From a bacterium (lineage in GTDB: Bacteria; Hydrothermota; UBA3073; JACQXS01; JAQTXJ01), in the NCBI GenBank assembly GCA_041649255.1, contig JBAZNK010000015.1:17361-81360 (forward strand): a DNA stretch of 64,000 bases. Reading direction: 5' to 3'. The number at the start of each line of letters is the position of its first letter. Positions within the stretch are counted from its first letter, which is position 1. This document shows positions 6,637-49,041 of the stretch, one piece after another. Under the pieces are notes generated by a model, which worked only from the letters and a program-made list of their open reading frames with translations, was not told the DNA's origin and did no database searches. Both the position numbers and the translations under genes were made by a program.

Positions 6637-7572
6637 TTATTTTTCTATTCTTAAATGGGTAAATGTCTCTTTAATTCCATAGGTTTTATAATATTCTACA
6701 GCTTTTTTTATCCCCTCTTTTAAAGGAGTTGTCGTCTTCCATCCAAAATCTTTGTTTGTCTTTGATGGATCAAGCAATATCGTGTAAACATCCCCGGAAT
6801 TTCTGGGTTGAACTTCAATGGGTTTGGTAAGTTTTATACCCATTTTTTCTACTATTGCATCAAATAATTCTTTTATTGAGTAATCTCCGCCCGAGGAAAT
6901 GTGGTAATAACCATTATTTCCTTTTCCATAAATTGCAGGTAGCACGACCTCGAGCAAATCCTCCACAAAAACAAAATCCCTTCGTGTATCAGCCAGGTAA
7001 CATTTTTGGCCTGTATTTAATCTCTGGTAAAAAGTAGGTACAGGACCACTTAAGTTTCTTGGCCCATACATATTAGCCAAGCGAAAAGAGATAAAATTAA
7101 TACCACTTAATGTAATATATTGCTCACCTGCTGTTTTACTTATAGCATAACTACTACCTTCTGATTTTATTGGATGTTCTAATGTAATAGGTTGCTCCAC
7201 AGGTTTTAATCCATAACATAAAGAAGTTTGAAAATATATTAATCTTTTTACCTTATGTTCTAAAGCAGCCTGAGTTATCAATGCAGTCCCATATACGTTT
7301 GTTCTTATATCTTCTTCCCAGTTTTTAGGGTCTTTATAAGAAGCAGCCGCGTGAACTACTATATCAGGACTAAATTCTTGAAAAACACTATTTACTAATT
7401 TAGAATCATAAATGGACCCCTCTACAATTTTCAAGTTACTATGTGGTTTTAAGTTGTCTCTTCTTCCGGTTGCAAAATTATCAATAACTAAAATATTTTC
7501 CCCTTTTAAAATTAGTTTATCTGCAATATTTGAACCTAAAAAACCGGCTCCTCCCGTAATTAATACTTTCAT
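6637..7572 (-). CDS. NAD-dependent sugar-nucleotide epimerase/dehydratase
   Basis: Motifs MKVLITGGAGFLGSNI and YAISK. The track start at 7584 is TTG. The ATG at 7572 is preceded by GGGAGGAAAG, so I place the start there. Confidence 0.85.
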   Translation of the reverse strand: MKVLITGGAGFLGSNIADKLILKGENILVIDNFATGRRDNLKPHSNLKIVEGSIYDSKLVNSVFQEFSPDIVVHAAASYKDPKNWEEDIRTNVYGTALITQAALEHKVKRLIYFQTSLCYGLKPVEQPITLEHPIKSEGSSYAISKTAGEQYITLSGINFISFRLANMYGPRNLSGPVPTFYQRLNTGQKCYLADTRRDFVFVEDLLEVVLPAIYGKGNNGYYHISSGGDYSIKELFDAIVEKMGIKLTKPIEVQPRNSGDVYTILLDPSKTNKDFGWKTTTPLKEGIKKAVEYYKTYGIKETFTHLRIEK

Positions 7573-7586
7573 CTTTCCTCCCAATA

Positions 7587-9497
7587 TTAGCTTTTATATT
7601 TTTTAAAATCGTCTATAAAAAGTTGATTCCATAATTCAAGACTCAATAGTCCCCATAATTTTCTATCAAATTCTTTACCTTTGTTTAAAAAACTTATAAT
7701 GTCAAATTTTTCATTTAAATAATGCCTATGCTTTGCTTTGGATGAAGTAAAAATATCAAATATAAAATCTTTGAGAGGTCCCTTACTCCACTTATTCAGT
7801 GGCACCGGGAATCCCATTTTATCTTTTCTAAGTGATATTTCTTTAGGAAGTTCCTTGTCAAAAGCTATTTTCAGTAGTCTTTTTAATTTTCCGTCTTTAA
7901 ATTTTATATCCGATGGAATTGTCGCTGCTAATTCAACAAGTTTATGGTCTAAAAATGGCACTCTAACTTCAAGCCCATTTGCCATGCTTACCCTGTCTTC
8001 AACATGTAATAGCGCAGGCAACAATGTTTTGAAATCAAAATGTGTCATACTATCAAAATATGATTCTTTTTCTACATTATTACTCCAATATAGTTTTTTA
8101 AATTCTTCAAACGGAGAATAATGCTTAAGTATTTCCCAATTAATTTCATCTTCAAATCCATTTGCCCTGTTTACTATTCTAAAATACCTTTTATCCCTAT
8201 CATCAAAAACCCCATCACTCCAAAAATTTTCTAACAAGGGTTTGTATTGTTCTAAAACTTTAAGATTAGGAATAATAGACTCGTAAGTCACAATGAATTT
8301 CCCGCTGTGTAAAGTTCCCGAGATTGCACCTTTTATACATTGCTCAAAATAACATATTAAATATCTAACATATCCCCCAAAAATCTCATCTCCCCCTGTA
8401 CCACTTAAAATTCCTTTTACAAATTTACTTGCAAGTTTTGCAACCATAAATTGTGGAAACGAACCGGGACCTGCAAGGGGATAATCTAAAGAATATATTA
8501 TTTTTTTTATATTATCTACAAAATCCTTTTCCTTTATGTCTTTTTCATAAAGTGAAATATCTTTGTGTGCAGCTAAAATCCTGGCATATTTAGATTCATC
8601 ATATTCTTCTTCCCCTGAAAACTTTCCTGTAAATCCTAAAAATCTTGAATTGTTCTTTATATCTTTTGCAGTAGAAGCAATAATCCCGGAATCTATACCT
8701 CCACTTATAAAGGAACCTATTTCAACGTCGCTTCTCAAGTGAATATTTATGGAATCAAATAATAACTCTTTTACCTTCTTTACAAAATATTCTTCTTTAT
8801 GAGTAAAGTCTAAATTATAATATACTTCCCAATATTTTTTTATACTTATATCTATTTTACCTTTTTCAACTTTTACAAAACCAGAATGGGCTGGAAGTAA
8901 TTGATATACGCCCTTAAACAAAGTCTTATCTCCAAGATAAAATTGAAAATAGATATAATCCTTCAAAGCATTGTTATCCATTTCTATATTATTCTTGAAC
9001 GGAATCAATGCTTTTACTTCTGAAGCAAAATAAAATCTTCCATCCTCTATAAAATAATAGAACGGCTTAATCCCAAACCTGTCTCTTGCAATGAATAAAT
9101 AGTTCTTTTTTTTATCCCATATAGCAAAAGCAAACATTCCTCTTAAGTGACTAACACATTTTTCTCCCCATTTTCTATATGCCTTCAAAATCACTTCCGT
9201 ATCTGAATTAGTTCTAAAGTTTTCCTTTCCAAGAATATCTCTCAATTCTATATAGTTATAAATTTCTCCATTATAGCTAATAACCAGCTCTTCATCTTCC
9301 ATTGGCTGGTCTCCCTTTTCTATATCTATAAGACTCAACCTTACATGCCCCAATCCCAATGTGTTGTTTTTATCACCCCATATTCCTTCCCCATCAGGGC
9401 CTCTATGTTTTTGAGATTTATTCATTTCCTTTATCATATTTTCAAGGGAATGCTTTGGCTCTTTTTTACAACTTAAAATTCCCGCTATTCCACACAT
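7587..9497 (-). CDS. asnB: Asparagine synthase (glutamine-hydrolysing)
   Basis: 636 aa with the N-terminal MCGIAGI nucleophile Cys2, and SGGIDS in the synthetase domain. Confidence 0.9.
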   Translation of the reverse strand: MCGIAGILSCKKEPKHSLENMIKEMNKSQKHRGPDGEGIWGDKNNTLGLGHVRLSLIDIEKGDQPMEDEELVISYNGEIYNYIELRDILGKENFRTNSDTEVILKAYRKWGEKCVSHLRGMFAFAIWDKKKNYLFIARDRFGIKPFYYFIEDGRFYFASEVKALIPFKNNIEMDNNALKDYIYFQFYLGDKTLFKGVYQLLPAHSGFVKVEKGKIDISIKKYWEVYYNLDFTHKEEYFVKKVKELLFDSINIHLRSDVEIGSFISGGIDSGIIASTAKDIKNNSRFLGFTGKFSGEEEYDESKYARILAAHKDISLYEKDIKEKDFVDNIKKIIYSLDYPLAGPGSFPQFMVAKLASKFVKGILSGTGGDEIFGGYVRYLICYFEQCIKGAISGTLHSGKFIVTYESIIPNLKVLEQYKPLLENFWSDGVFDDRDKRYFRIVNRANGFEDEINWEILKHYSPFEEFKKLYWSNNVEKESYFDSMTHFDFKTLLPALLHVEDRVSMANGLEVRVPFLDHKLVELAATIPSDIKFKDGKLKRLLKIAFDKELPKEISLRKDKMGFPVPLNKWSKGPLKDFIFDIFTSSKAKHRHYLNEKFDIISFLNKGKEFDRKLWGLLSLELWNQLFIDDFKKYKS

Positions 9498-15008: not shown

Positions 15009-15863
15009 ATGCGAATTTTTCTTATACCTAATTACGGATTTTGTTTTGGAGTAAAACGCTCCATAGATATTGCATATCACACGATAAAAAACAACAAAAC
15101 GCCGGCTTATACGTGGGGACACATAATACATAATCCCCAAGTCGTTGCTCAACTTGAAAAAACCGGTGTAAGCGCTTTAGACAGTCTTAAAGGAATAACA
15201 CCCGGAAAGTTAATCATCCGTTCACACGGGGTAAGCCCGGAATTTATACCCAAAGCCCAGAAAATGGGGTTTGAAATAATAGACGCTACCTGTCCTTTCG
15301 TTCAGAAAGCCCAGGAGTACGCAAAAAGATTGTGTAACGAAGGATACAACGTTGTGGTAATCGGAGCTGCGGAACACCCCGAAGTCCAGGGAATTATCGG
15401 ACATACAAATTTCAGAGCCACAGTCATAAACGAGATGAAAGCCATTGCAAAATTACCTAGAGTTCAAAAACTCGGCATCGTTTCTCAAACGACTCTTTCC
15501 CCGGAAATATTTGCGGAAATGGTAGGGAAACTTTTATCCAAAGCGGAAGAAGTCCGCGTATATAATACAATCTGCAGAGCCGTTATCTCACGCCAGCAAG
15601 AAACACTGGAATTGGCTAAAAAAGTTAAATTAATGATAATCGTGGGAGGAAAAAATTCGGCAAATACAAAAAGATTAGCCGAACTTGCGCGAAGTCAGGG
15701 GTGCGAAGCCTACCAGATAGAAACAAAAGACGAAATAAAAAAACAATGGTTCAAAAATAAATTATCCGTTGGCGTAACCGCTGGAACTTCCACCCCGGAC
15801 TGGATAATCCTTGAAGTCGTACAGGCTATAAAAAATCTGTCCCTTTCTAAGAAGAAACCCTGA
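15009..15863 (+). CDS. ispH: 4-hydroxy-3-methylbut-2-enyl diphosphate reductase
   Basis: 284 aa. GFCFGVKRSI, ATCPFV and SSNS-like GGKNSANT blocks match the LytB/IspH family. It ends at a TGA stop. Confidence 0.9.
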   Translation: MRIFLIPNYGFCFGVKRSIDIAYHTIKNNKTPAYTWGHIIHNPQVVAQLEKTGVSALDSLKGITPGKLIIRSHGVSPEFIPKAQKMGFEIIDATCPFVQKAQEYAKRLCNEGYNVVVIGAAEHPEVQGIIGHTNFRATVINEMKAIAKLPRVQKLGIVSQTTLSPEIFAEMVGKLLSKAEEVRVYNTICRAVISRQQETLELAKKVKLMIIVGGKNSANTKRLAELARSQGCEAYQIETKDEIKKQWFKNKLSVGVTAGTSTPDWIILEVVQAIKNLSLSKKKP

Positions 15864-21617: not shown

Positions 21618-24600
21618 TTATTTTATTAATACTATTTTTTTTGTTTCATTATAAGTTCCGGCATTAAATTTAACAAAATATATCCCGGCAGGATAATCTT
21701 TGAATTCCAATTTTTCTTCATACCGACCGGGCAATTTTTCACACTCTATTAATGTTTTTACACATCGCCCGGAAAGGTCAAAGAGCTTTAATGAAACATT
21801 ACTCTTCAAAGGTATCTGGTAACTAATAATTGTTGACTTTATAAATGGATTTGAAGAGTTCTGATTAAAACTGAAAAGTTTTGTTAAAGTATCCGTTTCT
21901 TCAACTCCAACTACTACAATAGTAGAAAATACGGTTCTGTTCTTCAAATTATCGGAAGCCTGTAGTTCCAATGTATCCTCTCCTTCGCTCAAACTAAGCT
22001 GATATGAAATACTTCCACGAGTACAACTTCCGGTATCGTACTGAAAATAATCGGCAAGCTGTATATTTCTTGGCAGCAATTGACCATTTTTTATTCTTAA
22101 CGTAAGAGCAAGATTATATGGCACTATTTTATTAAATACATTAATTCCAGATTCATCTTCCAGTAAAGCTGAAAACATAAATTCAGCAGTATTTATAGTA
22201 TCTCCCATAGAAACACCATTTACAAAGAGTTGAATCGCAGGGCCTACCGTGTCTCCGGGGTTATCGCCACCGGGCATAATCGTAACCGGGGTAGCAGCAT
22301 TCCCGCAACTTGTATCATTCCAGGCAAATACACTAATTTTCCCATATGCTCCCCACAGTAATGAATCTTGAATCGAATCAAGTTTTGGAATATAGAAACT
22401 CTCTTTCCATTTTCCATTTGTTACTTCCGTTATGCCTTCAAATAAAATATCCTCACACAATTGATTATCTACCATCCTGCCGCGCATTTTATATTTAGTA
22501 TTTCCCTCAATTCCAGGATATCCATGATAAACATAGGTATAATTATATTCCGAACTCCTAACCGTAATATGTGCAAAATTTGCATTCGGTGCTGTGCCTT
22601 CTATCTCAAGCATAGTTCCACCCATAAGAGTATCAGAAAAAGAATCAATTTCTACATTAATTGACCATGAGGGGAATCTTGTTGCAGGGTCAGCAAATAA
22701 ATTTTCATTTACCTGGAGATTTCTGGATAAGTTCTGCCCATATACTACCTGGCCTAACGTATTTAATTTTTGTTTTAGTAATAGATTAACCAGTAAAGTA
22801 TCCATACCCGATGAACCACCTGTAGTCCTGGTAGCCGCAATAGAAGCAATGGTGCCTTTGTTGGGTATTTTCTGTAAATAATCAGCCATACAATCATCAT
22901 CCATACGGTCAAAACATCCTATTCCACAAGACCAGAATTGCCAAATTGGGTTTTTTACACCATTATTCAGGACTTCTATATCCTGTGGATTATAAAAAAG
23001 AATCTCGTGACAGAAAAGATAAAGATTACCATGCCCGGCCGCAAGCACCATATTCATACCTTTATCAATATGTCTTATGATATCGTTTTCTGCCGTAGGT
23101 TTACGATTACAAGTTTCTAACGGATAGTTCATAGAATAAACCTTAAACACGTCATATTCTTGTGGAATCATATTTGCACATCTTTCTTCATTTGCTACAA
23201 ACATATCTCTATCCGGATATTCATCGTCTGAAATCAATAGAATACGATTCTTCCATACCCCTTGGTCTGCTTTTTCATACTTAGTAATTTTATCTATTGC
23301 ATTCTCTGCTTCAATTTTAGTTTTTGCCGTAATCCTTCCAACTGCTAAGTTATGCTGTGAAAACCAATCATCCCAGCAATAATTACCTTGAGGGGGATAA
23401 CCATATTCACCAACCTTATATCCTTCTTCCCTCGCAGGAATACGATTTTTTGATACGTCTGACTTGTATGCATATGTCCCGGCACCAAGTAAAAGACAAT
23501 ATCCGGGTTGTCCCCAATTATCGTAAGCATACGATAGAAAGTTCTTTATCGCATACGGCGAATTTTCTATTCCCCAGCTAAAATTATTATATATATCCAC
23601 AGTAGAAAAAACTTCAGTGCTTAATCCCTGCCATTCTCTATAAGTTTTAAGCGTATTTGCATAATTTATAAAATCAGGATGAGCGATTATTATAAAATCC
23701 AGATTTTGTGACATATTCCTTATATTATACGGACTTTCTTCTTTTATAACCGGGATTTTAAAACTGTCACTTGCATAATAAACACCGCCGGGGCACTGAA
23801 AACTAACCACTCCCGTATCAAAATCAACATTGGCAACCCTTTTGGGGTCAAGAGGATTCGTAATATTAAAAATCACAGGAGACGATTGAAAACCTTTTAA
23901 TGTAAAGGCGAGAGAATCCTCTCCACTGAATTTTAAGTTTCCGGTATACGCTTCATATTTCTTTTTACAAACAACTTCAAAGTAATCAAAAAATATGACA
24001 TCTTTTGTCATTGAACTTCCTTTATATAACTCAATGGTAACAGTATCCGTTCCGTCGTGAAATCCGGAAGCATCAAATTCAAAAAACTTCGGAGGGTATT
24101 CCTGTGGGCCAATCCAACTTGTATTATAAAATTCAACTCCATTCAAATATAATTTTATGTTATGATTCATATCCGTCGCCTCAGGCTTATATTGACTCAT
24201 ATCAGTATACCAGCCATAAACGGCAAATTTTATCTTGCAGGAATCATTATAACAACTATGTGCATCAAACGTATAATCTTTTTTTAGACTTGAAACTGAT
24301 GAAATACGTTCAAGTTTATCCCATACCCAGGCAAGTCCACTTTTTGCCGGACAAATAGAATCTTTTTCTATATGCAAAGTATCAAAAAAGTACGCGGGCG
24401 CATTTTGAACTGAACTACCTGAAATGCTGTCTCTTCTCCCACTGCCTCCACCATATGTAAGCCAATAAACATTAGTAGATGCATATGGATTCAGGAAAGC
24501 TAAATCATTCTTTCCCCATCCGTCAAGTGATGTTCCATAAAATAAAATAGAATTATTCGGAAGGATATAAATAGGGACTTCTTTCAAGGTATCACTTGTT

Positions 24601-25553
24601 CCGATAACCATTTTACTTCCACCGTTATATAATCTTACAGTACTGAGGTCAACACCTGATAAATCAACCTGTGAAGTGTCAATTTTATATATGCCTTCTT
24701 CTTTAACTTCCACCTTATACCAATTATTAGTGTAAAAATGCAATTTTTTTGTTTCGCTTTCTTTTTTCCAGTTCTTTGCCTGTTCATAGTTAAGAAGCAC
24801 TGATTCAAATACTTTTTCAAAAAATCTATCCTGATGTGCTACACCTGCATCGCCACCATAAAAATTAACCTTTACCCGTAAACTCTTATAAAACAATAGA
24901 GTTTTGCTATTAGGATTATACCTAAATGGATTTATTCCGATTTTTACGATTTCCTGTCCTCTATAAAGCGCTTGCTCTTCTACGCTTGCAATCGCAGAAG
25001 GTAAAAACCCATCCTGTGAAGATGCTTTACCTTTTACGTTTCCCCCTGTAATTTCATATATTGGCGGGATATCTACTCCTGTAGATTCTACGGTTATAGC
25101 TTCAACTACCTCCACTCTAACAGTTGCGCCTATCGGGACTCCTATCGTAACATATTTTATGGGAAGAGTAGATTTTTCAGGTATTTGCTCCTGATAACTA
25201 CTTGGAGTATAGTGCGGAAGTTCCGATTTTATGATATTATCAGGAGTATACAAAAACTCTATACTTCTACTAGTTGAATTCAATACTGTTACGTCTTTTT
25301 TAAAATAATTTTCTGTTTTTGGAGAAGGCACATAAGCTTTCTTGTATTTTGCGGTTTTTATACTATTTAAGGATATCTTTTGAGACAATTTTGAAAGTGG
25401 TTTTACTTGTCCTATTGAAACTTTACGTTTTACGACTGAATTACTTTCCGTTTGAGCAGCTACATTTCTTGATAAACTTGTTTTACTCGCTCTAACTGAA
25501 TAAGTCGCAAAAAAAACAAAAAATACTAAAGAAAAAATATACCATTTTTTCAT
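21618..25553 (-). CDS. Peptidase C25 (gingipain-like) with T9SS C-terminal domain; PorU-type sortase is one possibility
   Basis: 1311 aa with a signal peptide. The C25 core is ..DFIIIAHPDF..YREWQGLSTEVFSTVDIYNNFS..YCLLLGAGTY.., with catalytic-type His (AAGHGN) and Cys (WSCGIGCF). The C-terminus ..NPFIKSTIISY..LFDLSGRCV..GIYFVKF..IVLIK is a T9SS CTD. Confidence 0.75.
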   Translation of the reverse strand: MKKWYIFSLVFFVFFATYSVRASKTSLSRNVAAQTESNSVVKRKVSIGQVKPLSKLSQKISLNSIKTAKYKKAYVPSPKTENYFKKDVTVLNSTSRSIEFLYTPDNIIKSELPHYTPSSYQEQIPEKSTLPIKYVTIGVPIGATVRVEVVEAITVESTGVDIPPIYEITGGNVKGKASSQDGFLPSAIASVEEQALYRGQEIVKIGINPFRYNPNSKTLLFYKSLRVKVNFYGGDAGVAHQDRFFEKVFESVLLNYEQAKNWKKESETKKLHFYTNNWYKVEVKEEGIYKIDTSQVDLSGVDLSTVRLYNGGSKMVIGTSDTLKEVPIYILPNNSILFYGTSLDGWGKNDLAFLNPYASTNVYWLTYGGGSGRRDSISGSSVQNAPAYFFDTLHIEKDSICPAKSGLAWVWDKLERISSVSSLKKDYTFDAHSCYNDSCKIKFAVYGWYTDMSQYKPEATDMNHNIKLYLNGVEFYNTSWIGPQEYPPKFFEFDASGFHDGTDTVTIELYKGSSMTKDVIFFDYFEVVCKKKYEAYTGNLKFSGEDSLAFTLKGFQSSPVIFNITNPLDPKRVANVDFDTGVVSFQCPGGVYYASDSFKIPVIKEESPYNIRNMSQNLDFIIIAHPDFINYANTLKTYREWQGLSTEVFSTVDIYNNFSWGIENSPYAIKNFLSYAYDNWGQPGYCLLLGAGTYAYKSDVSKNRIPAREEGYKVGEYGYPPQGNYCWDDWFSQHNLAVGRITAKTKIEAENAIDKITKYEKADQGVWKNRILLISDDEYPDRDMFVANEERCANMIPQEYDVFKVYSMNYPLETCNRKPTAENDIIRHIDKGMNMVLAAGHGNLYLFCHEILFYNPQDIEVLNNGVKNPIWQFWSCGIGCFDRMDDDCMADYLQKIPNKGTIASIAATRTTGGSSGMDTLLVNLLLKQKLNTLGQVVYGQNLSRNLQVNENLFADPATRFPSWSINVEIDSFSDTLMGGTMLEIEGTAPNANFAHITVRSSEYNYTYVYHGYPGIEGNTKYKMRGRMVDNQLCEDILFEGITEVTNGKWKESFYIPKLDSIQDSLLWGAYGKISVFAWNDTSCGNAATPVTIMPGGDNPGDTVGPAIQLFVNGVSMGDTINTAEFMFSALLEDESGINVFNKIVPYNLALTLRIKNGQLLPRNIQLADYFQYDTGSCTRGSISYQLSLSEGEDTLELQASDNLKNRTVFSTIVVVGVEETDTLTKLFSFNQNSSNPFIKSTIISYQIPLKSNVSLKLFDLSGRCVKTLIECEKLPGRYEEKLEFKDYPAGIYFVKFNAGTYNETKKIVLIK

Positions 25554-37827: not shown

Positions 37828-38868
37828 CTAAGAACTAACTACTTTATTAGTGAATCCAATAACAAAAAACACCACTATCCCGATTATCATAGCTATAATA
37901 CCATTACTTAACACGCCCGTTGCTGAACCCGCAATCATAAAATTATGCGCAACCGCAACTCCGGCAATCATCCCAAGAAAACTTATTCCGGAATCCGTAT
38001 TTCCATAACCTGCAAGAATTGTTTGTCTGAAAGGACATCCGCCTATCAACACCGACCCCCAACCCACAAGCAACATTCCCAAAAAACTTGCTATATAATT
38101 TGTATGAACTCCGGGAGATACGCCCGGTTTAAATTGCCCCAATAATAAATTCCCCAGAAGACAGAAAAGGAAAAACCCGAGAATTCCGCTAAACAAATGG
38201 AAATCCTTCATAAGAAAAATATCCCTGATTCCGCCGGCAAAACACAGCCTTGACCTCTGCGCAAAAATACCGACAAGTAATCCTGCAATAATAGAAATTA
38301 GAACCGGCGCATGCCCTTTAGAAGTTAAAACAATAAAAGAAGGTTTTACCAGAAGTAATATAAATAAACATAATGCAATAACCGGAATTATAAAACCATT
38401 TATTTTGCTAACTTCCTGCGCTTTTCCAAGAGTAAAGCCTCCCTTAAGAAATAGCGCTCCGATCCATATTCCAACGATAAATCCTAAAAGTCCTGCCAAA
38501 GCCGTCCAATCTCCGCCTGCCAATCTACCCAGCATTCTAATAGGACACCCGAGGAAAACAAGCGCTCCCATTGCTACGAAGAAACTAATCGTAAAACGAA
38601 TAATAGGAGAAGAACCTCCAATAACCTTGAATTCTTTAGTAAAAATCCCTATAATAAAAGCGCCTAAAATAAACCCTAATATCTCAGGACGAATGTACGA
38701 GAGTTTTTCCATATGATGTAATCCTAATGCGCCTGCAATGTCCCTGATAAAACAAATACCGCAAACACCCATATTAGGAGGATTTCCTAAACTTATAAGG
38801 AATGCAAACAATATTCCAAATAATCCCCCCGTAAGAAAAACTATCCACGAAATCTTAATTTTTCCCAT
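37828..38868 (-). CDS. yedE: YedE/YeeE-family membrane protein (putative selenium/sulfur compound transporter)
   Basis: 346 aa and polytopic. It has repeated conserved Cys loops (GVCGICFIRD, SRLCFAGGIRD, GGCPFRQ) characteristic of YedE-type proteins. It sits adjacent to a TusA-like gene. Confidence 0.8.
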   Translation of the reverse strand: MGKIKISWIVFLTGGLFGILFAFLISLGNPPNMGVCGICFIRDIAGALGLHHMEKLSYIRPEILGFILGAFIIGIFTKEFKVIGGSSPIIRFTISFFVAMGALVFLGCPIRMLGRLAGGDWTALAGLLGFIVGIWIGALFLKGGFTLGKAQEVSKINGFIIPVIALCLFILLLVKPSFIVLTSKGHAPVLISIIAGLLVGIFAQRSRLCFAGGIRDIFLMKDFHLFSGILGFFLFCLLGNLLLGQFKPGVSPGVHTNYIASFLGMLLVGWGSVLIGGCPFRQTILAGYGNTDSGISFLGMIAGVAVAHNFMIAGSATGVLSNGIIAMIIGIVVFFVIGFTNKVVSS

Positions 38869-38883
38869 TTTGCCCCCACTTCG

Positions 38884-39102
38884 TTATTTTAATTTCGTTA
38901 TCTTAATATTGTAAACTCCTTGAGTCTCGGTCAATTCAACCCCACATCCCGAATTTTTTGCAAACCGCGATACGTTTTCAGATGCAGGTTTATTATCAAC
39001 AATAACTTCTATAACTCCATCGGTCATTCCTTCTAATGCCTTTTTAGTTAAAATTACCGGCTGGGGACAATCTAATCCACACGCATCAATTTTGTTTGAC
39101 AT
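38884..39102 (-). CDS. TusA/SirA-like sulfur(selenium)transferase domain protein (YedF N-domain-like)
   Basis: 72 aa with a CGLDCPQPVILTKKAL CPxP active-site motif. Confidence 0.8.
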   Translation of the reverse strand: MSNKIDACGLDCPQPVILTKKALEGMTDGVIEVIVDNKPASENVSRFAKNSGCGVELTETQGVYNIKITKLK

Positions 39103-41595: not shown

Positions 41596-43317
41596 TTATT
41601 TCAGCAGGGTAAGTTTTTGTGTAAAGCTTCTATTGCCGCAGATAAGTTTAGCGAAGTATATACCCGGGGGTAGATTTTTTGCATCCAGATTAAAATTATA
41701 ACTCCCGGCTTGTTTTTCTTCGTTTATGAATGTTTTTACAAGCCTCCCTCCTATGTCGTAAATCTTCAACGAGGTTTTAGTCTTGGCAGGCAGTTGATAT
41801 GAAATTGTCGCATAAGAAACAAAAGGATTGGGAGTGATTTTCATATTTGTTTTATATTCGTTAGGGATTTCCGAAACAGCCGGCACATCCACGAAAAAAG
41901 TAATGGTTGTCGTATCATTGCTTAAATTATTGTCCCCCGGATATGTTGTTACGGCTGTTAAAGTAAGAGTATCCGGCGTTTGAGATAAACACTTTTTCGT
42001 AAAGATAATATTTTTTGTTTCCGTGAAGTTGAGGTCAGTAAAAGCGCTATCTTCGTAACATCCCGTAATTTTTATCTTTACCCCGTTAAGAGGTTTAAGT
42101 CCGAAGTTTGATACTTCCAGTATGATATCCAAACTATCCCCGATATTGTATTTAACCTGATTCTGCGGACTTACGAATTTAATTATTCCCGCATCGGTAT
42201 CGGGAAGTGTTTCAAAAATATTATTAAGTCCCATTTTTGCGAGGTAACTGCTCACCCAGCACATATCTTCCGTATCCGGATCCTGTGTGGTAGAAGTTAT
42301 TCCCCCGTCAAAGTCAGTATCATAAGACAAAAGGACATCCGTAAGAAATTTATGTTTATTTTTATATTTTGTATCCCTTGATATTTCATACATTGCGTAA
42401 TGTGCGTTGCAGTATGCGACATTCCACGCATTATCCCAGTTATACCCGTCTCCGCAATCACGCCATACCTGAAAAGTATCAACATAACTTCCATTAGTAT
42501 CAATCCATGCTTTTCCGCGTATCGTATCCTCCCGAAAAGTTGAATTACATATTCCCCAAACTATAGTTCCGCTTGACATAGCCCATGTTTCTTCCGACAA
42601 GCGCAGTTGTGTGCTCAGTGTTATCCAGTACATAAGTCTTTCGCCGTATGTTGCTGCGCTATCCATCCAATTATTATTATTTCTTAGTGCCCCATATTGA
42701 TAAAGGTTCCCGGCTGCCCATCCCGTTACGAATGAGTTAATGTATTTATATGAAGGGTGATAAATATTCAGCGGATGACTCATAATATAATCAGCGCAGG
42801 AATCAGCAAATCCATAATACGAGGAATCTCCATAGGTTTCAGAATAAACTTCCGCAGCAGTGAGCGCCCACGCAGAGTTGTGAACACGGTAATAATCGTA
42901 CTCCACGGCGCCTTCTTCTTCCCACGGCGGGTACCTATCACAATAGATTTTTGCATTTCTGATATTAGTACTGAATTTCGCAGTATCTCCCGTAAGTTGT
43001 CCGTATCTTGCCCAGACCCAGATAGCTTCGAGCGTATTATCCGTCTGTATAATGTTTGCGAGTGCTCCTGCTTCAGCTTCAATCATCCCGCCGAAATTGG
43101 TATCTGCAGGATTTGTGACCTGCCATTTCGTAAGAAAGTCTGCAGTTCGAGCAAATTCTGCAGGATAACTGTGTCTCTTGGAAAGAAGAAGTGTATCTAA
43201 CGTTTTATTGATTTTTCTACTTGTGTAGTATCCCGGATAATCAATCGGAATAGTTGCGTATACAGGAGTACATAAGATTATTTCTAATAAGAAAAAAAAC
43301 GGCAGTTTTATCTTCAC
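41596..43317 (-). CDS. Secreted hypothetical protein with Ig-like (CARDB-type) module and T9SS C-terminal domain
   Basis: 573 aa with a signal peptide. The Trp/Tyr-rich N-domain is of unknown family. The C-terminus ..PNPFVSYATISY..IYDIGGRLV..GIYFAKL..LTLLK is a T9SS CTD. Its start overlaps the YHS gene stop by 4 nt. Confidence 0.65.
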   Translation of the reverse strand: MKIKLPFFFLLEIILCTPVYATIPIDYPGYYTSRKINKTLDTLLLSKRHSYPAEFARTADFLTKWQVTNPADTNFGGMIEAEAGALANIIQTDNTLEAIWVWARYGQLTGDTAKFSTNIRNAKIYCDRYPPWEEEGAVEYDYYRVHNSAWALTAAEVYSETYGDSSYYGFADSCADYIMSHPLNIYHPSYKYINSFVTGWAAGNLYQYGALRNNNNWMDSAATYGERLMYWITLSTQLRLSEETWAMSSGTIVWGICNSTFREDTIRGKAWIDTNGSYVDTFQVWRDCGDGYNWDNAWNVAYCNAHYAMYEISRDTKYKNKHKFLTDVLLSYDTDFDGGITSTTQDPDTEDMCWVSSYLAKMGLNNIFETLPDTDAGIIKFVSPQNQVKYNIGDSLDIILEVSNFGLKPLNGVKIKITGCYEDSAFTDLNFTETKNIIFTKKCLSQTPDTLTLTAVTTYPGDNNLSNDTTTITFFVDVPAVSEIPNEYKTNMKITPNPFVSYATISYQLPAKTKTSLKIYDIGGRLVKTFINEEKQAGSYNFNLDAKNLPPGIYFAKLICGNRSFTQKLTLLK

Positions 43318-43631
43318 CGCTCTCTATTCTCCACTTTTCTCTTTTCCCTACTATAAATATATTTCACTGGATGTTTTAAAAACTCAGTTTCACATTTCTG
43401 TGAACAAAAATAATAATTTTTATCAACATATTTTAACTTTAGAGAGTGCGACTTATATACTTCCGTTCCACATACAGGGTCCATATCCCTTATTGATGTA
43501 TCCTCTTCTTCTTGTTTTTGGGGCGGCGACTTTTCTTCTTTTTCTTTTTTATTCAAATTAAGATAAGCACATCCCGCTAACATGCAAATAGTCCCACATA
43601 AAAACAAACTCAATGCTATTTTTTTCAACAT
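43314..43631 (-). CDS. YHS-domain lipoprotein (putative metal-binding)
   Basis: Lipobox MLAGC, then DPVCGTEV..KYVDKNYYFCSQKCETEFLKHP, which matches the YHS/TRASH-type Cys motif. Confidence 0.7.
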   Translation of the reverse strand: MLKKIALSLFLCGTICMLAGCAYLNLNKKEKEEKSPPQKQEEEDTSIRDMDPVCGTEVYKSHSLKLKYVDKNYYFCSQKCETEFLKHPVKYIYSREKRKVENRER

Positions 43632-43695
43632 TGTTCTTCTTCCCCAAAACCCCTTAAGTTAGGGGCGAAGCTATTAGCCCCGCCCCTATTTATTC

Positions 43696-44706
43696 CTATT
43701 TCAAAGACATTATTTTACTAACATTTTTGTGACTTCCGGTATTTACTACACAGAAATATATACCGTTTCCTATTTTATTACCCAATTCATTTTCCCCGTT
43801 CCAGTATGCAGTATACGAGCCTGCATCCTGTTCGCCATTCACAATTTGTTTCACCAATTTACCGGTTACGTCATAAATACCTACACTGACTTTTTCTTTG
43901 TTTTCAATTGAATAAAAAACATTGGTATTTGAAGTAAACGGATTCGGCGATACCTTTACGCTAAATGTATTCTTGTCAGAGTTTTCTTCCACAGCTACAT
44001 TCATAACGGAGGTTTTTGCACCTTGACACACTTGTACACCTTTTCCCGAAGTCTTCTGGTACCAAACAACTATATTACAGTTGCTGACATTCCAGCCCGA
44101 ACTTATTGTAAAATTCTGTGATACGTCAGTAGAAGCCCCTACCGATAGATTCTTGGTAGTACCGCCATAAGGTATTATAACTCTTGCTACGTCGTAATAC
44201 GTAGACCCCGAATACGAAATGTTAGTCTCGGTAATCAGTACGTGAACAACTCCCGTTAGAGAAGTCCCCGATACGTTCACAATGTGAGCCTTAACCGTAC
44301 CGGTCTTTGCTCCTGAATTATAAAAAGTCCCTGCTAAACTTATCGTTACTTTCGGTATAGTGTCTTTACGCATATCAAAATAACCTCTACTATTAGCATA
44401 ACTTGGACTCGCCTGGAAAGCCCACCCATCGTATATTACCGTTGGAGTTCCCTGGATGCCATAATAATTATATGCCCTGTTATAAAAATCGCTCACATAA
44501 AAAGGATCGCTGGAACTACAATGATAAGCCACTACTATTAATGTATCTTTTGCTTCCTGTGATAATTGATGCAGCCCCGCTGCAGTCGTTGGGCAGTATG
44601 TTCAGTTAGTTGCAGTGAACTCCTCAAATACCATAACTCTTTGCACTGCCAAGACCGAACTTGCCAAAACCGCCAACATACAAAAAATCCCTAAACCTTT
44701 ACGCAT
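43696..44706 (-). CDS. Candidate selenoprotein: secreted thioredoxin-fold (UxxC) protein with T9SS C-terminal domain, paralog 1
   Basis: The hand translation extends the track ORF (43696..44532) upstream in frame: AGGAGGAAAT-ATG(44706) MRKGLGIFCMLAVLASSVLAVQRVMVFEEFTATN-TGA(44604..44602)-TYCPTTAAGLHQL..VVAYH... It has a signal peptide, a UxxC motif, a hairpin 17 nt after the TGA, and the C-terminal CTD ..SPNPFTSNTNVFY..IYDVTGKLV..GIYFCVV.. Confidence 0.7.
44570..44584 (-). promoter_or_regulatory. SECIS-like hairpin of paralog 1
   Basis: The mRNA reads UGA + 17 nt + UGCAGC GGG GCUGCA (6-bp stem, G-rich loop). The sequence and spacing are conserved in paralog 2. Confidence 0.5.
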
Positions 44707-44834
44707 ATTTCCTCCTATATTTTTTTAACACAACATCTTCCTATAAAATATAACAACACCTCTCAGCAACAATTGTTACTCCCTCCTTAAAATAACAATA
44801 TTTTAATTAACCGTCACTGTCCAAAATTTTGTAC

Positions 44835-45836
44835 TTATTTGATTGATAATATTTTACTAACATTTTTGTGACTTCCGGCATTTACTACACAGAAATATAT
44901 ACCGGTTCCCATCTTATTCCCCAATTCATTTTTCCCGTTCCAGTATGCAGTATAAGAGCCTGCATCCTGTTCTTCATTCACAAGTTGTTTCACCAATTTA
45001 CCGGTTACGTCATAAATACCTACACTGACTTTTTCTTTGTTTTCGATTGAATAAAAAACATTGGTATTTGAAGTAAACGGATTCGGTGATACCTTCACGG
45101 CAAATGTATTCTTGTTTGAGTTTTCTTCCGCAGCTATACTCGTAACAGGTATTTTAGCTCCCTGGTATATTTCTCCGGTTGAAGTATTCTGGACAAAAGC
45201 AACTATACTGCAATTAGATGGATTCCAACCTCCGCCCGAACTGATTACGAAGTATTTTGTCGAATCAAGAGAGGCACCTGCGGCTAAGGATACCGGGCTT
45301 CCGGCTGCGCGAAGCAGGTCTCTTGCTACGTCATAATAACCAGAAAGATTTGTTTCGGTGATTGCAATGTAAAGTAATCCGCTTATTGAAACACCGGAAA
45401 CGTTTGTGATATGCGCAGTAACGTACCCGTTTCTTGCCGACGAGTTATAGTAAGAATTAGAAAGGTCTATCGTTAATTGGGGTGCAACGACCTTTCGGGT
45501 ATTAAAATCGGTTCTAAAAGTACTGTATGTCGTACCGGTTCTTCCTATTATACCGTCACACACCGTAGTAGGGGTGCCTGACACACCATAATCATTTGCC
45601 CTTTTAGCATGTTCGGTTGTATAAAAAGTTTGACCCGATACGGGAAAATATGAAACAACAGCTAAAGAATCCCCTACTTCTCCTGCTAATTGATGCAGCG
45701 CCGCTGCAGTCGCTGGGCAGGACGGTCAAGCCGTACTGGTAAATTCTTCTACTATAACTACTCTTTTCACTGCCGATGCCTGACTTATCAAAGTCATCAT
45801 TATGCAGGCAATTCCTAAAAAGACGTTCTTACGCAT
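44835..45836 (-). CDS. Candidate selenoprotein: secreted thioredoxin-fold (UxxC) protein with T9SS C-terminal domain, paralog 2
   Basis: The hand translation extends the track ORF (44835..45584) upstream in frame: AGGAGGAAGT-ATG(45836) MRKNVFLGIACIMMTLISQASAVKRVVIVEEFTSTA-TGA(45728..45726)-PSCPATAAALHQL..VVSYF... It has the same architecture as paralog 1. There are 16 nt between the selD stop and this start. Confidence 0.7.
45694..45708 (-). promoter_or_regulatory. SECIS-like hairpin of paralog 2
   Basis: The mRNA reads UGA + 17 nt + UGCAGC GGC GCUGCA, followed by the same UCAAUUA as in paralog 1. Confidence 0.5.
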
Positions 45837-45852
45837 ACTTCCTCCTACCTGA

Positions 45853-46911
45853 CTAACAAAAGTCAGGATTTATTACTATTTTCCCTTTCGGTTTATTTAT
45901 CACTTCGCCAATAATAGTCACATCTTTTATCCCGGCTTTTCTCATTTTCTTAACCATATTATCAACTTTATTCTTAGAAACACATATCAACAATCCACCT
46001 GAAGTCTGGGGGTCAAACAAAACATCTTTTTTCCAGTCGGGGATTTTATCAGACATTTCCACAAATTTTATTCTAAATTCTTTATTGCGATAAGCTCCCC
46101 CCGGAACCATTCCCATTTTCGCAAATTCTTCAACTCCGTTAAAAATAGGAATTTTATTGATATCCAGTTTTACACCAACCTTTTTCTCTCCGGCAATCAT
46201 CTCGCAAATATGCCCGATAAGACCAAATCCCGTTATATCAGTGCAGGCGTTCACACCCGTTTCCTGCGCAATTTCAGAAGCAATCTTGTTCAAAGTAGTC
46301 ATTGACTTAATTATTTCATTTATACTTTCATTAGACGCCAAATTAGCTTTAATTGCCGTGCTGATTATTCCTGTACCTAATGGTTTCGTAAGCACTATAC
46401 CATCCCCTGTTTTCGCGCCCGTATTTCTGATTACTTTACCGGGATGAATCGTTCCTGTAACGGAAAGTCCGTATTTTAATTCCGAATCTTCAACACTATG
46501 TCCACCAACAAGCGTCACTTCAGCTTCTTTAAGTTTTGCCAACCCACCTTCCAATATCTTTTTAAGAACGGATATGTCCAATTTACTCACAGGGAATCCA
46601 ACAATATTCATTGCCACAATAGGTTTTCCACCCATAGCATAAACATCGGAAAGAGCATTAGCCGCAGCAATTTGTCCAAACAGATATGGGTCATCAACGA
46701 TAGGAGTAAAAAAGTCTATTGTCTGCACGATAGCAATATCGTCAGTTAACTTATAAACACCGGCATCTTCTGCGTTTTCAAAACCGGCAATAAGATTTTT
46801 ATTTTTTTTCTGAATCAACCCGCACAATGCCTTATCCAGTACACCTGGACCTAATTTAGCCGCTCAGCCACCGCCTTTGCTGTACTGTGTTAATTTAAAG
46901 TCATCGTTCAT
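45853..46911 (-). CDS. selD: Selenide, water dikinase (selenophosphate synthetase), Sec-containing form
   Basis: The track ORF (45853..46827, TTG start) lacks the N-terminus. Upstream in frame: ATG(46911) MNDDFKLTQYSKGGG-TGA(46866..46864)-AAKLGPGVLDKAL-CGLIQ... This aligns with the E. coli SelD N-terminus [22 protein letters not shown], with U at the catalytic Cys17 position. The rest (..IVQTIDFFTPIVDDPYLFGQIAAANALSDVYAMGGKP..) is typical SelD. Confidence 0.9.
46835..46849 (-). promoter_or_regulatory. SECIS-like hairpin of selD
   Basis: The mRNA reads UGA + 14 nt + UCCAG GUGUA CUGGA (5-6 bp stem, GU-containing apical loop). Confidence 0.45.
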
Positions 46912-46920
46912 TACACTCCC

Positions 46921-47979
46921 TTATTGTGGCTTTTTCATTGCATCATAAAAAGCCTGCCAGAACGGGTCCACTCTTGGATGTTCCAATTCCCTATCTTTAC
47001 CATTTTCTCTCAATATTATTTTTTCTTTAGCATTTGTTAATTCCCCGACAATTGCCGATTTAATACCTTCTTTTGATAACACATCGACTACTTCCTGAGC
47101 TTTATGGGGTCTGCATGAGATAATCAAAGTACCTTCACTTATAGATTTATACGGGTCAATCTTGAAATAATCGCATATTTCTTTCACGTTATTTTCCATC
47201 GGAATAAGTTCTTTTTCTACTCTTATTCCAAATCCGCTTGCCTGTGCAAGTTCATATAATCCGCCCCAGATTCCACATTCCGTAGCGTCGTGCATTGAAC
47301 TTATTCCTTCATCCCTGACTCCAACTTTTACCGCAGCCATTGCTTCTTTTATTACCGACATTTTATAAAACAATTCCTGTGACTGTTTAGAAAAATCACT
47401 TCCAAATTCCTTTTCAAGCAATTTAGGAAACATAGCTGCAAATATTCCGCAAGCTTCTATTGCAGGGCCTTTTGTAATAATTATTTTGTCTTTCTCTTTT
47501 GCCATTCTGGGGGTTACGTATTTATCTTTATCGCCTATTGCCAAAACCGTAGCTCCTCCGACCATCGGATAATTGCAATTCTCATACCTCGCAGTATGCC
47601 CGCAAATTACGCTTACTCCAAATTTTTTACATTCTTGATGAATGGTCTCCCACATTATTTGTATTTCTTCTTCGTTGATTTCCATAGGTAAATTGAGGTC
47701 TATCGCCATATAAACGGGAGGCAATCCGCTTGTTACCACATCGGAAATGAGTATATGAGTAGCAAACCATGCCGCTCTTTCCCAGCCATAAGCAGGAACT
47801 ATAAATACAGGGTCAGTAGTTATCGCCACAGCTTGTGTCCCGATTTCTACGATTCCAACGTCTACTCCATGTTGCGGACCTACGAGTATATTTTTATTGC
47901 CGGCGCCTAAACGCGGAAATATAAGTTCATTGAAAACCTCAGGAGATATTTTGCCTATATCAGGAAGCCTTGATTTCAT
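46921..47979 (-). CDS. AIR-synthase-related protein (PurM/HypE/SelD superfamily)
   Basis: 352 aa. ..VGPQHGVDVGIVEIG..VAITTDPVF.. and the later ..SMHDATECGIWGGLYELA.. are PurM-fold N and C domain hallmarks. There are 9 nt to the selD start. Confidence 0.7.
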   Translation of the reverse strand: MKSRLPDIGKISPEVFNELIFPRLGAGNKNILVGPQHGVDVGIVEIGTQAVAITTDPVFIVPAYGWERAAWFATHILISDVVTSGLPPVYMAIDLNLPMEINEEEIQIMWETIHQECKKFGVSVICGHTARYENCNYPMVGGATVLAIGDKDKYVTPRMAKEKDKIIITKGPAIEACGIFAAMFPKLLEKEFGSDFSKQSQELFYKMSVIKEAMAAVKVGVRDEGISSMHDATECGIWGGLYELAQASGFGIRVEKELIPMENNVKEICDYFKIDPYKSISEGTLIISCRPHKAQEVVDVLSKEGIKSAIVGELTNAKEKIILRENGKDRELEHPRVDPFWQAFYDAMKKPQ

Positions 47980-48156: not shown

Positions 48157-49041
48157 ATGATAGATTTACAGCAGTTAAAAACCTTTTGCACGGTGGTTGA
48201 AAAAAAGAGTTTTACAAAAGCGCAGGAAATAGTCCATCGCACGCAATCCACAATAAGTTCTCAAATATCGGCATTAGAAAGATTTTACAACACGCCCTTG
48301 TTTGACCGTTCATCAAGAGAAATAAGAGTCACAGATAACGGAAAAATATTATACGAATACGCCAAAAAAATTATTGAACTTGCAGAGAAATCTAAAAATG
48401 CAATATATTCATCGAAACAGACACTACAAGGCGAATTACTTATCGGCGCCAGCACAATACCGGGAACTTACATATTACCCGAAATTTTAAGTATTTTTAA
48501 GAAAAAATATTCTGAAGTTGATATCTCTATGCAAATTACCAACAGCAAAGATATAATTACTAAAATAATTGAACATACATTGGAAATAGGGATAGTAGGA
48601 GAAAAATTAAACGATAATCGTCTTGAATACATAAATATAGCAAAAGACAGAATTGTTCTTGTTGTCCCGAAAAATCATAAATGGGTAAAAGCATCAAAAA
48701 TTAAACTAAAAGACATTCAAAAAGAATCTTTTCTTTCAAGGGAAGAAGGGTCCGGCACCAGAACGGCATTGGAATCAATTCTAAAAACAAAAGGCATAAA
48801 TAAATTAAACACTTCCATAAACTTAGGGAGCACCGAAGCAATAAAAGAAGGCGTAAAAGCAGGTTTGGGACCGGCTTTTGTATCAGAATGGGCAATCAGG
48901 GATAAGTCACTAAAAACAATTGCCGTTGAAAACCTTGATATCGTGCGTCACTTTTATATTGTATTCCTGAGAAACAGCGTAAAAAACAATATAATCGAAA
49001 CTTTCATACAGTTTATTAAAAAAGATTATTTCCTCTCCTGA
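48157..49041 (+). CDS. LysR-family transcriptional regulator, divergent from the selD operon
   Basis: 294 aa with an N-terminal wHTH (LKTFCTVVEKKSFTKAQEIVHRTQSTISSQISALE) and a LysR substrate-binding domain. It ends at a TGA stop. Confidence 0.85.
   Translation: MIDLQQLKTFCTVVEKKSFTKAQEIVHRTQSTISSQISALERFYNTPLFDRSSREIRVTDNGKILYEYAKKIIELAEKSKNAIYSSKQTLQGELLIGASTIPGTYILPEILSIFKKKYSEVDISMQITNSKDIITKIIEHTLEIGIVGEKLNDNRLEYINIAKDRIVLVVPKNHKWVKASKIKLKDIQKESFLSREEGSGTRTALESILKTKGINKLNTSINLGSTEAIKEGVKAGLGPAFVSEWAIRDKSLKTIAVENLDIVRHFYIVFLRNSVKNNIIETFIQFIKKDYFLS

Follow-up and report, generated by a model that had tools for sequence, protein, structure and literature searches.

A tandem pair of probable Omp28/HBP35-like selenoproteins carrying sorting domains of the type IX secretion system

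Introduction

A 64,000-nucleotide stretch of bacterial DNA (assembly GCA_041649255.1, contig JBAZNK010000015.1, positions 17,361 to 81,360 of the forward strand; the whole stretch is called the window below) carries two tandem minus-strand genes, gene 1 (43696..44706) and gene 2 (44835..45836), whose frames are each crossed by a UGA codon in the active-site motif of a thioredoxin-fold domain. The locus thus raises the question of how these codons are read, and of what kind of protein results. We propose that genes 1 and 2 probably encode selenoproteins that resemble Omp28 and HBP35 and are sorted by the type IX secretion system (T9SS), and that the active-site residue of both is very probably selenocysteine (Sec, or U in motifs). 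Selenocysteine is the best reading because the TGA is conserved, the homologs have cysteine in its place, the frame upstream of it is under selection, the hairpin that follows it is kept, and such hairpins are in excess throughout the family.

Results

Reading through a single UGA restores two complete frames

When read through their UGA codons, gene 1 and gene 2 span full frames of 336 and 333 codons, respectively, each followed by a stop (all positions within the two genes refer to the minus strand). Each frame contains exactly one TGA, at codon 35 of gene 1 (44602..44604) and at codon 37 of gene 2 (45726..45728), and is otherwise uninterrupted. Read as selenocysteine, these codons provide the first position of a U-x-x-C motif, which is U-T-Y-C in gene 1 and U-P-S-C in gene 2, and the two UGAs and the cysteine of the homologs fall into one alignment column. 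The wider motif is V-F-E-E-F-T-A-T-N-U-T-Y-C-P in gene 1 (Sec context VFEEFTATN-U-TYCPTTAAGLHQL) and I-V-E-E-F-T-S-T-A-U-P-S-C-P in gene 2 (Sec context IVEEFTSTA-U-PSCPATAAALHQL), so that both genes have EEFT-x3-U-x-x-C-P in common. The translation of gene 2 runs from a signal peptide through a thioredoxin-fold domain with U-P-S-C and a beta-sandwich to a T9SS C-terminal domain, and gene 1 has the same architecture.

An AGGAGG ribosome-binding site is located 8 nt 5′ of the ATG in both genes. The N-terminus of gene 1 reads MRKGLGIFCMLAVLASSVLA, followed after the cleavage site by VQRV, and that of gene 2 reads MRKNVFLGIACIMMTLISQASA, followed by VKRV. Judged by eye, these are signal peptides of 20 residues in gene 1 (44647..44706, ending in ...SVLA before VQ) and 22 residues in gene 2 (45771..45836, ending in ...SQASA before VK), with the basic n-region, hydrophobic core and A-x-A cleavage site that typify leaders of the general secretory (Sec) pathway. 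The mechanical list of open reading frames (ORFs) held only the GTG-started 3′ parts of the genes (43696..44532 and 44835..45584), as the original prediction had remarked. The same picture is found in public assemblies, in which the close relatives are all annotated as fragments that begin just 3′ of the motif and bear the label 'FlgD immunoglobulin-like domain containing protein'.

The segment 5′ of the TGA was compared with that of orthologs from assemblies GCA_028716385.1 (L001) and GCA_028688815.1 (L002). Codons 1-36 of gene 2 differ from those of the L001 ortholog at 9 synonymous and 2 non-synonymous sites, and codons 1-34 of gene 1 differ from those of the L002 ortholog at 7 synonymous sites and at no non-synonymous one. 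Because these differences are almost all synonymous (9:2 and 7:0), the segment 5′ of the TGA appears to be translated in-frame. The proposal that the upstream signal-peptide segments are part of the genes is thus borne out by the AGGAGG sites, the open frames and the purifying selection upstream of the TGA. A scan for promoters and terminators gave no result above chance.

The TGA is conserved at a column otherwise occupied by cysteine

Read on the DNA, the TGA is kept at the same codon, and the frames are kept, in both paralogs of the window, L001 and L002 (referred to below as the six genes). The same column holds a TGA in two homologs from Zixibacteria (L006 and L007), in a third paralog (L012), in a tandem T9SS pair (L016) and in a form with dockerin-like repeats (L018). 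Moreover, all 4 of the clusters of N-terminally truncated homologs that were inspected on the DNA have a TGA at the Sec column. Full-length homologs from a profile search carry C-x-x-C at this position (109 of 109, mostly CGPC), as do the representatives in an exhaustive search (at least 144 of 147); the latter also revealed that the Omp28-related domain family is very large, with 21,720 representative clusters at E <= 0.001.

The pattern with which the genome collection was scanned had Cys at the Sec column, and that scan is therefore biased towards Cys homologs. This bias was offset by scanning metagenome contigs with a pattern containing the TGA itself (GAR GAR TTY ACN N9 TGA N6 TGY CC), which yielded 121 matches, 46 of them encoding members of the family. 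Among the 27 complete Sec forms from the metagenome scan, 18 carry a T9SS sorting domain according to our own hidden Markov model (HMM). The original prediction had put the TGA at the first position of a thioredoxin-type C-x-x-C and had dismissed a chance nonsense mutation. Both claims agree with these results, as homologs have Cys at the UGA column, and the TGA occupies this catalytic position consistently across paralogs, genomes and phyla.

A short SECIS-like hairpin lies downstream of each UGA

Each UGA is followed by a hairpin resembling a selenocysteine insertion sequence (SECIS), located at 44568..44587 in gene 1 (GA(C)UGCAGC-GGG-GCUGCAUC) and at 45692..45711 in gene 2 (GA(C)UGCAGC-GGC-GCUGCAUC). 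Its 6-bp core, UGCAGC-GGG/GGC-GCUGCA, begins 18 nt 3′ of the UGA in both cases and is extended to 8 bp by two pairs across a bulged C. Over the 21 nt that contain this hairpin (ACT GCA GCG G(G/C)G CTG CAT CAA), the six genes from three genomes differ at one loop base only, an invariance that extends to all synonymous positions. The paralogs reach their highest nucleotide identity, 0.90-0.93, over the hairpin stretch, against ~0.5-0.6 over most of the N-terminal domain. Since identity is equally high between genomes and within them, this peak points to selection rather than to recent gene conversion.

The 55- to 68-nt stretches 3′ of the UGAs have ordinary folding energies compared to shuffled sequences (z ~ -0.2 to -0.8). 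Because the hairpins are too short for a folding-energy test, their position, conservation and family-wide frequency were used instead. A qualifying hairpin (a stem of 6 bp or more, a G opening the loop, and a centre 20-32 nt 3′ of the UGA) was present in 31 of the 37 distinct TGA genes, compared to a background of 11.3% at other in-frame positions in the same ORFs (binomial p ~5e-24), while none of the 4 Cys homologs examined passed the test. Among these genes, 23 distinct stem/loop sequences occur, with loops such as GTT, GTG, CGTG, AGTT and CGGT. Related stems show paired changes (AGTGCAA/TTGCACT versus AGCGCAA/TTGCGCT, and CGCAGCC/GGCTGTG versus TGCGGCC/GGCTGCA), as noted by inspection. 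RNAalifold found no consensus structure in an ungapped alignment of 28 Sec-gene stretches, because the register of the hairpin shifts by 3-8 nt between subfamilies.

The proteins combine an Omp28-related module with a T9SS sorting domain

Both proteins end in a T9SS type A sorting domain, which covers residues 252-336 in gene 1 (43699..43953; TIGR04183 37.1 bits) and residues 249-333 in gene 2 (44838..45092; 36.7 bits), with the cut-off at 23. Both also pass the Pfam model Por_Secre_tail (PF18962; 30.0 bits for gene 1 and 33.5 bits for gene 2, cut-off 27). For the N-terminal module, Pfam Omp28 (PF11551, cut-off 34.9) is passed by gene 2 with 43.4 bits and just missed by gene 1 with 34.3 bits, and several Pfam thioredoxin families match both proteins below threshold. 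The top NCBIfam domain matches of both are NF045500 "Omp28-related selenoprotein" (40.6 bits for gene 1 and 55.8 bits for gene 2, not reaching the cut-off of 200) and the Omp28 lipoprotein model NF033782 (39.9 and 51.6 bits, not reaching the cut-off of 150).

The fold was examined on an AlphaFold model of the Cys homolog P0042, which shares 32% identity with gene 2 across the entire N-terminal module and was modelled with a mean pLDDT of 86.3. The model consists of a thioredoxin fold in which the C-x-x-C starts helix 1, then a beta-sandwich, and finally the sandwich of the C-terminal sorting domain. A Foldseek comparison of this model with the PDB gave as its two best matches HBP35 (5Y1A; E 1.8e-15, TM-score 0.60 on the target) and Atu2684/DUF1223 (2AXO; E 4.7e-9), and a sequence profile searched against the PDB returned 2AXO (3.8e-6), the MJ0307 thioredoxin (6e-6) and HBP35 (E 0.015). 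The T9SS C-terminal domains announced by the original prediction thus score above the cut-offs of TIGR04183 and PF18962, and its Omp28 resemblance turns out to be real given the PF11551, NF033782 and NF045500 matches. The suspected thioredoxin or Omp28-like fold likewise finds support, in the model of the Cys homolog P0042 and in the Pfam Omp28 match of gene 2.

The window also encodes a PorU-like T9SS sortase (21618..25553, minus strand) that matches positions 4-1042 of the 1095 positions of NF033707 and, with 399.6 bits, just misses the cut-off of 420; it is 1311 aa long and has ~270 extra N-terminal residues. As judged from its sequence, this gene suggests that the organism may have the secretion system needed by the sorting domains. 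At least 5 further proteins with T9SS sorting domains are encoded in the window, which brings their number to at least 7. With respect to the host, LepA of the window lineage has its nearest named match in Candidatus Desantisbacteria (65% identity), and by LepA similarity the lineage does not belong to the Bacteroidota.

The pair is embedded among selenium genes in a genome with standard stops

Upstream of the pair lies selD, encoding selenophosphate synthetase (45853..46911, minus strand; TIGR00476 399.5 bits, cut-off 125), the end of which is separated from gene 2 by 16 nt; the two are probably co-transcribed. This selD has an in-frame UGA of its own at the catalytic position (46866..46864, in GGG-U-AAK), and the hairpin GUCCAG-GUGUA-CUGGAU begins 14 nt 3′ of it. 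The earlier placement of the pair directly behind a Sec-containing selD is therefore upheld by the 16-nt gap and the UGA at 46866..46864.

These genes form part of a minus-strand run from 47979 to 37828. It starts with a HypE/ThiL-like protein of the AIR-synthase family, selD, gene 2, gene 1 and a YHS-domain lipoprotein, and ends with a 573-aa T9SS protein, a MarR regulator, a T9SS beta-propeller protein, a small YedF/TusA-like protein (38884..39102; TIGR03527 68.4 bits, below the cut-off of 110) and a putative selenium transporter of the YedE family (37828..38868; TIGR04112 402.8 bits, cut-off 200). Divergently, on the plus strand, lies a selenium-metabolism-associated LysR regulator (48157..49041; NF040786 289.2 bits, cut-off 250). 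Most of this gene order is retained in L002, where gene 2, gene 1, the YHS gene and the 573-aa T9SS protein gene are followed further on by TusA and YedE.

Two other members of the run deserve mention. The AIR-synthase-family protein directly 5′ of selD (46921..47979, minus strand) is closest to HypE, ThiL and SelD and scores under all NCBIfam cut-offs; it may be an uncharacterised selenium-linked paralog. The small lipoprotein with a YHS metal-binding domain (43314..43631, minus strand) is immediately 3′ of gene 1, a position that is kept in L002; it weakly matches a model named 'YHS domain-containing (seleno)protein' and has no TGA.

Elsewhere in the window, TGA serves as a genuine stop in 5 of the 43 large ORFs, including ispH (15861..15863) and the LysR gene (49039..49041), in agreement with the original prediction that no alternative code is in use. 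A six-frame scan of the 64-kb window for in-frame TGA codons between long open frames returned three plausible cases only, namely selD and genes 1 and 2. Beyond the window, the ~17 kb of contig read on the two flanks hold only glycosyltransferases and other unrelated genes.

Related Sec-containing proteins differ in their C-terminal parts and motifs

The third Sec-containing paralog, L012 (7746..8546, from GCA_028688815.1), carries a leader of the lipoprotein type (…GAAGC) and lacks a T9SS domain. Alongside the window-type pair, it appears that the lineage targets Sec-bearing Omp28-like modules in two ways. In the Sec-containing homologs L006 and L007 from Zixibacteria, and likewise in L018, dockerin-like repeats take the place of the terminal T9SS domain, which suggests another mode of extracellular attachment for the same selenoprotein module.

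A further Omp28-like homolog, L014 (4857..6188, from JGI metagenome 3300038551), has a TGA at both redox positions (T-N-T-S-U-P-Y-U-L), and a 7-bp hairpin begins 19 nt 3′ of the second UGA. As read from the sequence, its U-P-Y-U is a candidate U-x-x-U diselenide motif.

Just 5′ of the orthologous pair in L001, two tandem genes (6739..7587 and 7646..8506) encode T9SS-sorted proteins of a family unrelated to Omp28. In each of them, the first position of a U-P-x-C motif is an in-frame TGA (GYDPM-U-PNCG and WSVS-U-PECY), and an 8-bp hairpin with a GGU loop begins 21 nt 3′ of the UGA. They are annotated as split genes, of 43 aa plus 213 or 217 aa, with a weak DUF4082 match in one. These two proteins are a candidate second T9SS selenoprotein family.

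A separate observation concerns the 3′ ends of genes 1 and 2 that encode the sorting domains (43699..43990 and 44838..45130). Here, the paralogs within a genome are mostly 90-100% identical at the nucleotide level, compared to ~75-90% between genomes, whereas the N-terminal domains are only ~50-60% identical. This pattern points to gene conversion between the tandem copies at their 3′ ends.

Relation to known selenoproteins and thioredoxin-fold proteins

Selenoproteins of this general kind were predicted earlier as GOS_C, found in Global Ocean Sampling data as 74 Sec and 312 Cys sequences (Zhang & Gladyshev 2008, PMC2398784). GOS_C proteins were described as having a thioredoxin-like fold and SECIS-like elements, with no function assignable (PMC2398784), and a 2026 review of prokaryotic selenoproteomes lists NF045500 as "Hypothetical protein GOS_C" with the motif UxxC (PMC13188914). 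Like these proteins, the window pair has an Omp28-related thioredoxin-fold module with U-x-x-C in E-E-F-T-x3-U-x-x-C-P, Cys homologs that far outnumber the Sec forms, a SECIS hairpin at a similar distance from the UGA, and a presumed thiol-type redox role. A protein of 1154 aa encoded on L052, one of the contigs of the metagenome scan, reaches 312.9 bits with NF045500 and ends in a TIGR04183 domain (42.2 bits), so that the NF045500 family already includes T9SS cargo. From the EEFT-x3-U-x-x-CP motif in common with L052, we infer that the Sec column of the window proteins is the NF045500 column.

The window proteins nevertheless differ from GOS_C/NF045500 in several respects. Their 40.6 and 55.8 bits, where the cut-off is 200, place them outside the family model; they are ~335 aa long and consist of the module and the sorting domain only, whereas L052 has many extra domains; and their genes follow selD as a tandem pair, in a lineage that is unclassified and not marine. 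Because of these scores well below the cut-off, they are a separate short subfamily: a new, tandemly duplicated branch of a known kind of predicted selenoprotein that lies outside the NF045500 model. The novelty claimed for the pair in the original prediction was consequently overestimated, given that Sec-containing Omp28-related proteins had been catalogued as GOS_C in 2008 and as NF045500, and that L052, a true member, is T9SS-sorted.

By fold, as modelled on P0042, the closest characterised analogue is HBP35 of Porphyromonas gingivalis (5Y1A). It displays the same order of signal peptide, two-cysteine thioredoxin domain, beta-sandwich and T9SS domain, and it was the top structural match of the modelled homolog P0042. 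Experiments have shown that HBP35 has thioredoxin activity, which needs the two active-site cysteines, and that the T9SS carries it out to the cell surface, where it becomes attached (PMC2907840, PMC3120885). It also binds haemin and is required for normal growth under haem limitation (PMC2907840, PMC3120885). Unlike the window proteins, HBP35 has Cys instead of Sec; its sequence similarity to them is marginal (profile E 0.015), and only HBP35 is known to bind haemin and to take part in haem acquisition.

Three other groups invite comparison. The Omp28 outer-membrane lipoproteins (PF11551, NF033782) have a homologous module; the window proteins, however, have a leader of the signal-peptidase-I type and a T9SS sorting domain instead of a lipoprotein anchor, have Sec in place of the first Cys, and score below the NF033782 cut-off. 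The DsbA-like, DsbG-like and thiol:disulfide interchange selenoproteins (Table 1 of PMC13188914) also have a U-x-x-C thioredoxin fold behind a signal peptide, and were predicted by the same logic of Sec/Cys pairs and SECIS elements, but they belong to other thioredoxin-fold families, are periplasmic, and have neither an Omp28-type sandwich nor a T9SS signal. Atu2684/DUF1223 (2AXO), lastly, which ranked second in the structural comparison and first in the PDB sequence search, likewise combines a thioredoxin domain with a beta-sandwich and has the motif E-L-F-T-S-x-G-C-x-S-C-P, but is a proteobacterial Cys protein without a T9SS domain and with no assigned function. We know of no Sec form of it.

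Discussion

Weighing the readings of the UGA codons and of the proteins

Three readings do without selenocysteine. If the TGAs were true stops, the genes would be broken or split and would yield leader peptides only, or 3′ parts started at an internal GTG. This would accord with every public assembly, in which the truncated 'FlgD' product is annotated, and with the use of TGA as a stop elsewhere in the window. However, a GTG-started product would have no signal peptide with which to reach the T9SS, and its thioredoxin fold would be missing both strand 1 and the active site. Furthermore, purifying selection acts on the frame 5′ of the TGA, and paralogs, genomes and phyla all show the TGA at a single catalytic Cys column, followed by a conserved hairpin, which makes true stops extremely improbable. 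Decoding of the UGA as a standard amino acid (Cys, Trp or Gly), through near-cognate reading or a variant code, would accord with the negative result for selA, selB and tRNA-Sec in the window and ~17 kb of flanking contig. We consider it very improbable nonetheless, as TGA ends 5 of the 43 large ORFs at sensible positions and the code is therefore standard; as the only three TGAs in 64 kb that are in-frame in long conserved frames all occupy catalytic Cys positions and are all followed by a hairpin; and as one of these three genes is selD, the enzyme that makes the selenium donor. In addition, members of the NF045500 branch count as accepted selenoproteins (PMC2398784, PMC13188914). Misread or misassembled TGC or TGT codons come to mind since the window derives from a metagenome assembly (ENA ERZ27247363), but the TGA is shared by the two paralogs and recurs in assemblies made independently from further samples and species (L001, L002, L012 and several dozen contigs from metagenomes), so that we give this explanation practically no credence. 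An alternative code, a pseudogene and an assembly error were thus rejected, given that TGA stops elsewhere, that purifying selection is seen, and that the TGA is repeated in independent assemblies.

A fourth reading accepts the T9SS-sorted selenoproteins as real, but holds that general redox activity is not their task and that they would instead capture selenium outside the cell, reduce it or pass it on, or do so with a soft metal or haem. The selenolate-thiolate pair would then form the outermost step of an uptake module comprising YedE/YedF, SelD, the LysR regulator and the YHS lipoprotein. The genes do lie between selD and the YHS lipoprotein gene, on the same strand as the YedF-like and YedE genes and adjoined by the selenium LysR, and the order gene 2, gene 1, YHS, 573-aa T9SS protein ... 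TusA, YedE is repeated in L002. The fold analogue HBP35, moreover, is a haemin binder without which growth suffers when haem is limiting (PMC2907840), and there is no obvious reductant at the cell surface to sustain a catalytic cycle. On the other hand, selenoprotein genes are often found near selD through their dependence on selD alone, the homologs in L001, L012 and L016 lie away from selenium genes, and most of the Cys-containing family (21,720 representative clusters) is presumably found in organisms that do not use selenium. Selenium or metal binding by these proteins is conjecture, and we regard the reading as possible yet unlikely. A wider version is more doubtful still: T9SS-displayed selenoproteins might be the outermost parts of selenium acquisition, capturing or reducing selenium from the environment, or a chalcophile metal, with a selenolate-thiolate pair at the surface and passing it on to YedE/YedF and SelD under control of the selenium LysR, and might represent a general, so far unrecognised trait of T9SS-bearing candidate phyla. 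The idea of such a general trait finds support in the U-x-x-U variant in L014 and in the second, unrelated candidate T9SS family at 6739..8506 of L001.

Several points weigh against the interpretation that we prefer, that of T9SS-sorted, Omp28/HBP35-like selenoproteins. A single hairpin is weak evidence, as 11-13% of arbitrary codon positions pass the same test, and the minimum-free-energy z-scores of the hairpins are only -0.55 and -0.76. Rfam, applied at gathering thresholds to the whole window and at permissive thresholds to 43600..47000, has no family that matches the hairpins, and returned neither a SECIS nor a tRNA-Sec match. Bacterial SECIS elements are poorly modelled, however, and this negative says little. 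Neither were selA, selB or tRNA-Sec found by other means in the window and the ~17 kb of flanking contig. The modelled structure is that of the Cys homolog P0042 and not of the window proteins. The linkage to selD is not universal either: in L001, the pair is surrounded by other T9SS cargo genes and selD is not found within 10 kb of it, and the L001, L012 and L016 homologs are not adjacent to selenium genes, so that the selenium-gene linkage may reflect only co-regulation with selenium supply. Finally, a catalytic redox cycle is conjecture because no electron donor is evident for a U-x-x-C at the surface.

A proposed route from UGA to the cell surface

The structure of the genes, the Sec/Cys column, the conserved hairpin, a homolog's fold and the sorting domains were observed directly; for Sec insertion, export, surface location, activity and regulation of both proteins, we infer the following course. 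Each UGA would be decoded as Sec in a SelB-dependent manner, aided by the short SECIS hairpin within the coding sequence. The resulting pre-protein would consist of a cleavable Sec-pathway signal peptide, the Omp28-related module (a thioredoxin-fold domain with U-x-x-C plus an immunoglobulin-like beta-sandwich) and the type A T9SS domain. It would cross the inner membrane via the Sec translocon and the outer membrane via the T9SS, after which a PorU-type sortase would cleave off the sorting domain and anchor the protein on the cell surface or release it. There, by analogy with HBP35, its most likely role would be that of a selenol/thiol-disulfide oxidoreductase or a selenolate-based ligand binder, in which the exposed Sec attacks and the downstream Cys serves as the resolving residue. 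Expression would probably be tied to selenium supply, in view of the predicted co-transcription with selD, the adjoining LysR regulator and the YedE/YedF genes.

Implications for surface selenoproteins

Full-text literature searches returned nothing relevant linking selenoproteins or selenocysteine with T9SS or Omp28. To our knowledge, no experimental study has dealt with any of these proteins. With the UGA read as Sec, annotated fragments that have no signal peptide become complete secreted proteins again, which corrects a widespread mis-annotation; this reading also adds a short subfamily that the NF045500 model misses. With a sorting domain on 18 of the 27 complete Sec forms, selenoproteins displayed at the surface by the T9SS appear to be common in environmental bacteria. 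They raise the question of what advantage Sec would offer outside the cell, where no obvious reductant exists, and the assays established for HBP35 (insulin reduction, haemin binding and T9SS-dependent surface attachment) could reveal what Sec contributes there. In the lineage of the window itself, the linkage to selD, YedE/YedF and the selenium LysR suggests that expression of the pair may be controlled accordingly, and that the proteins may have a role in selenium handling.

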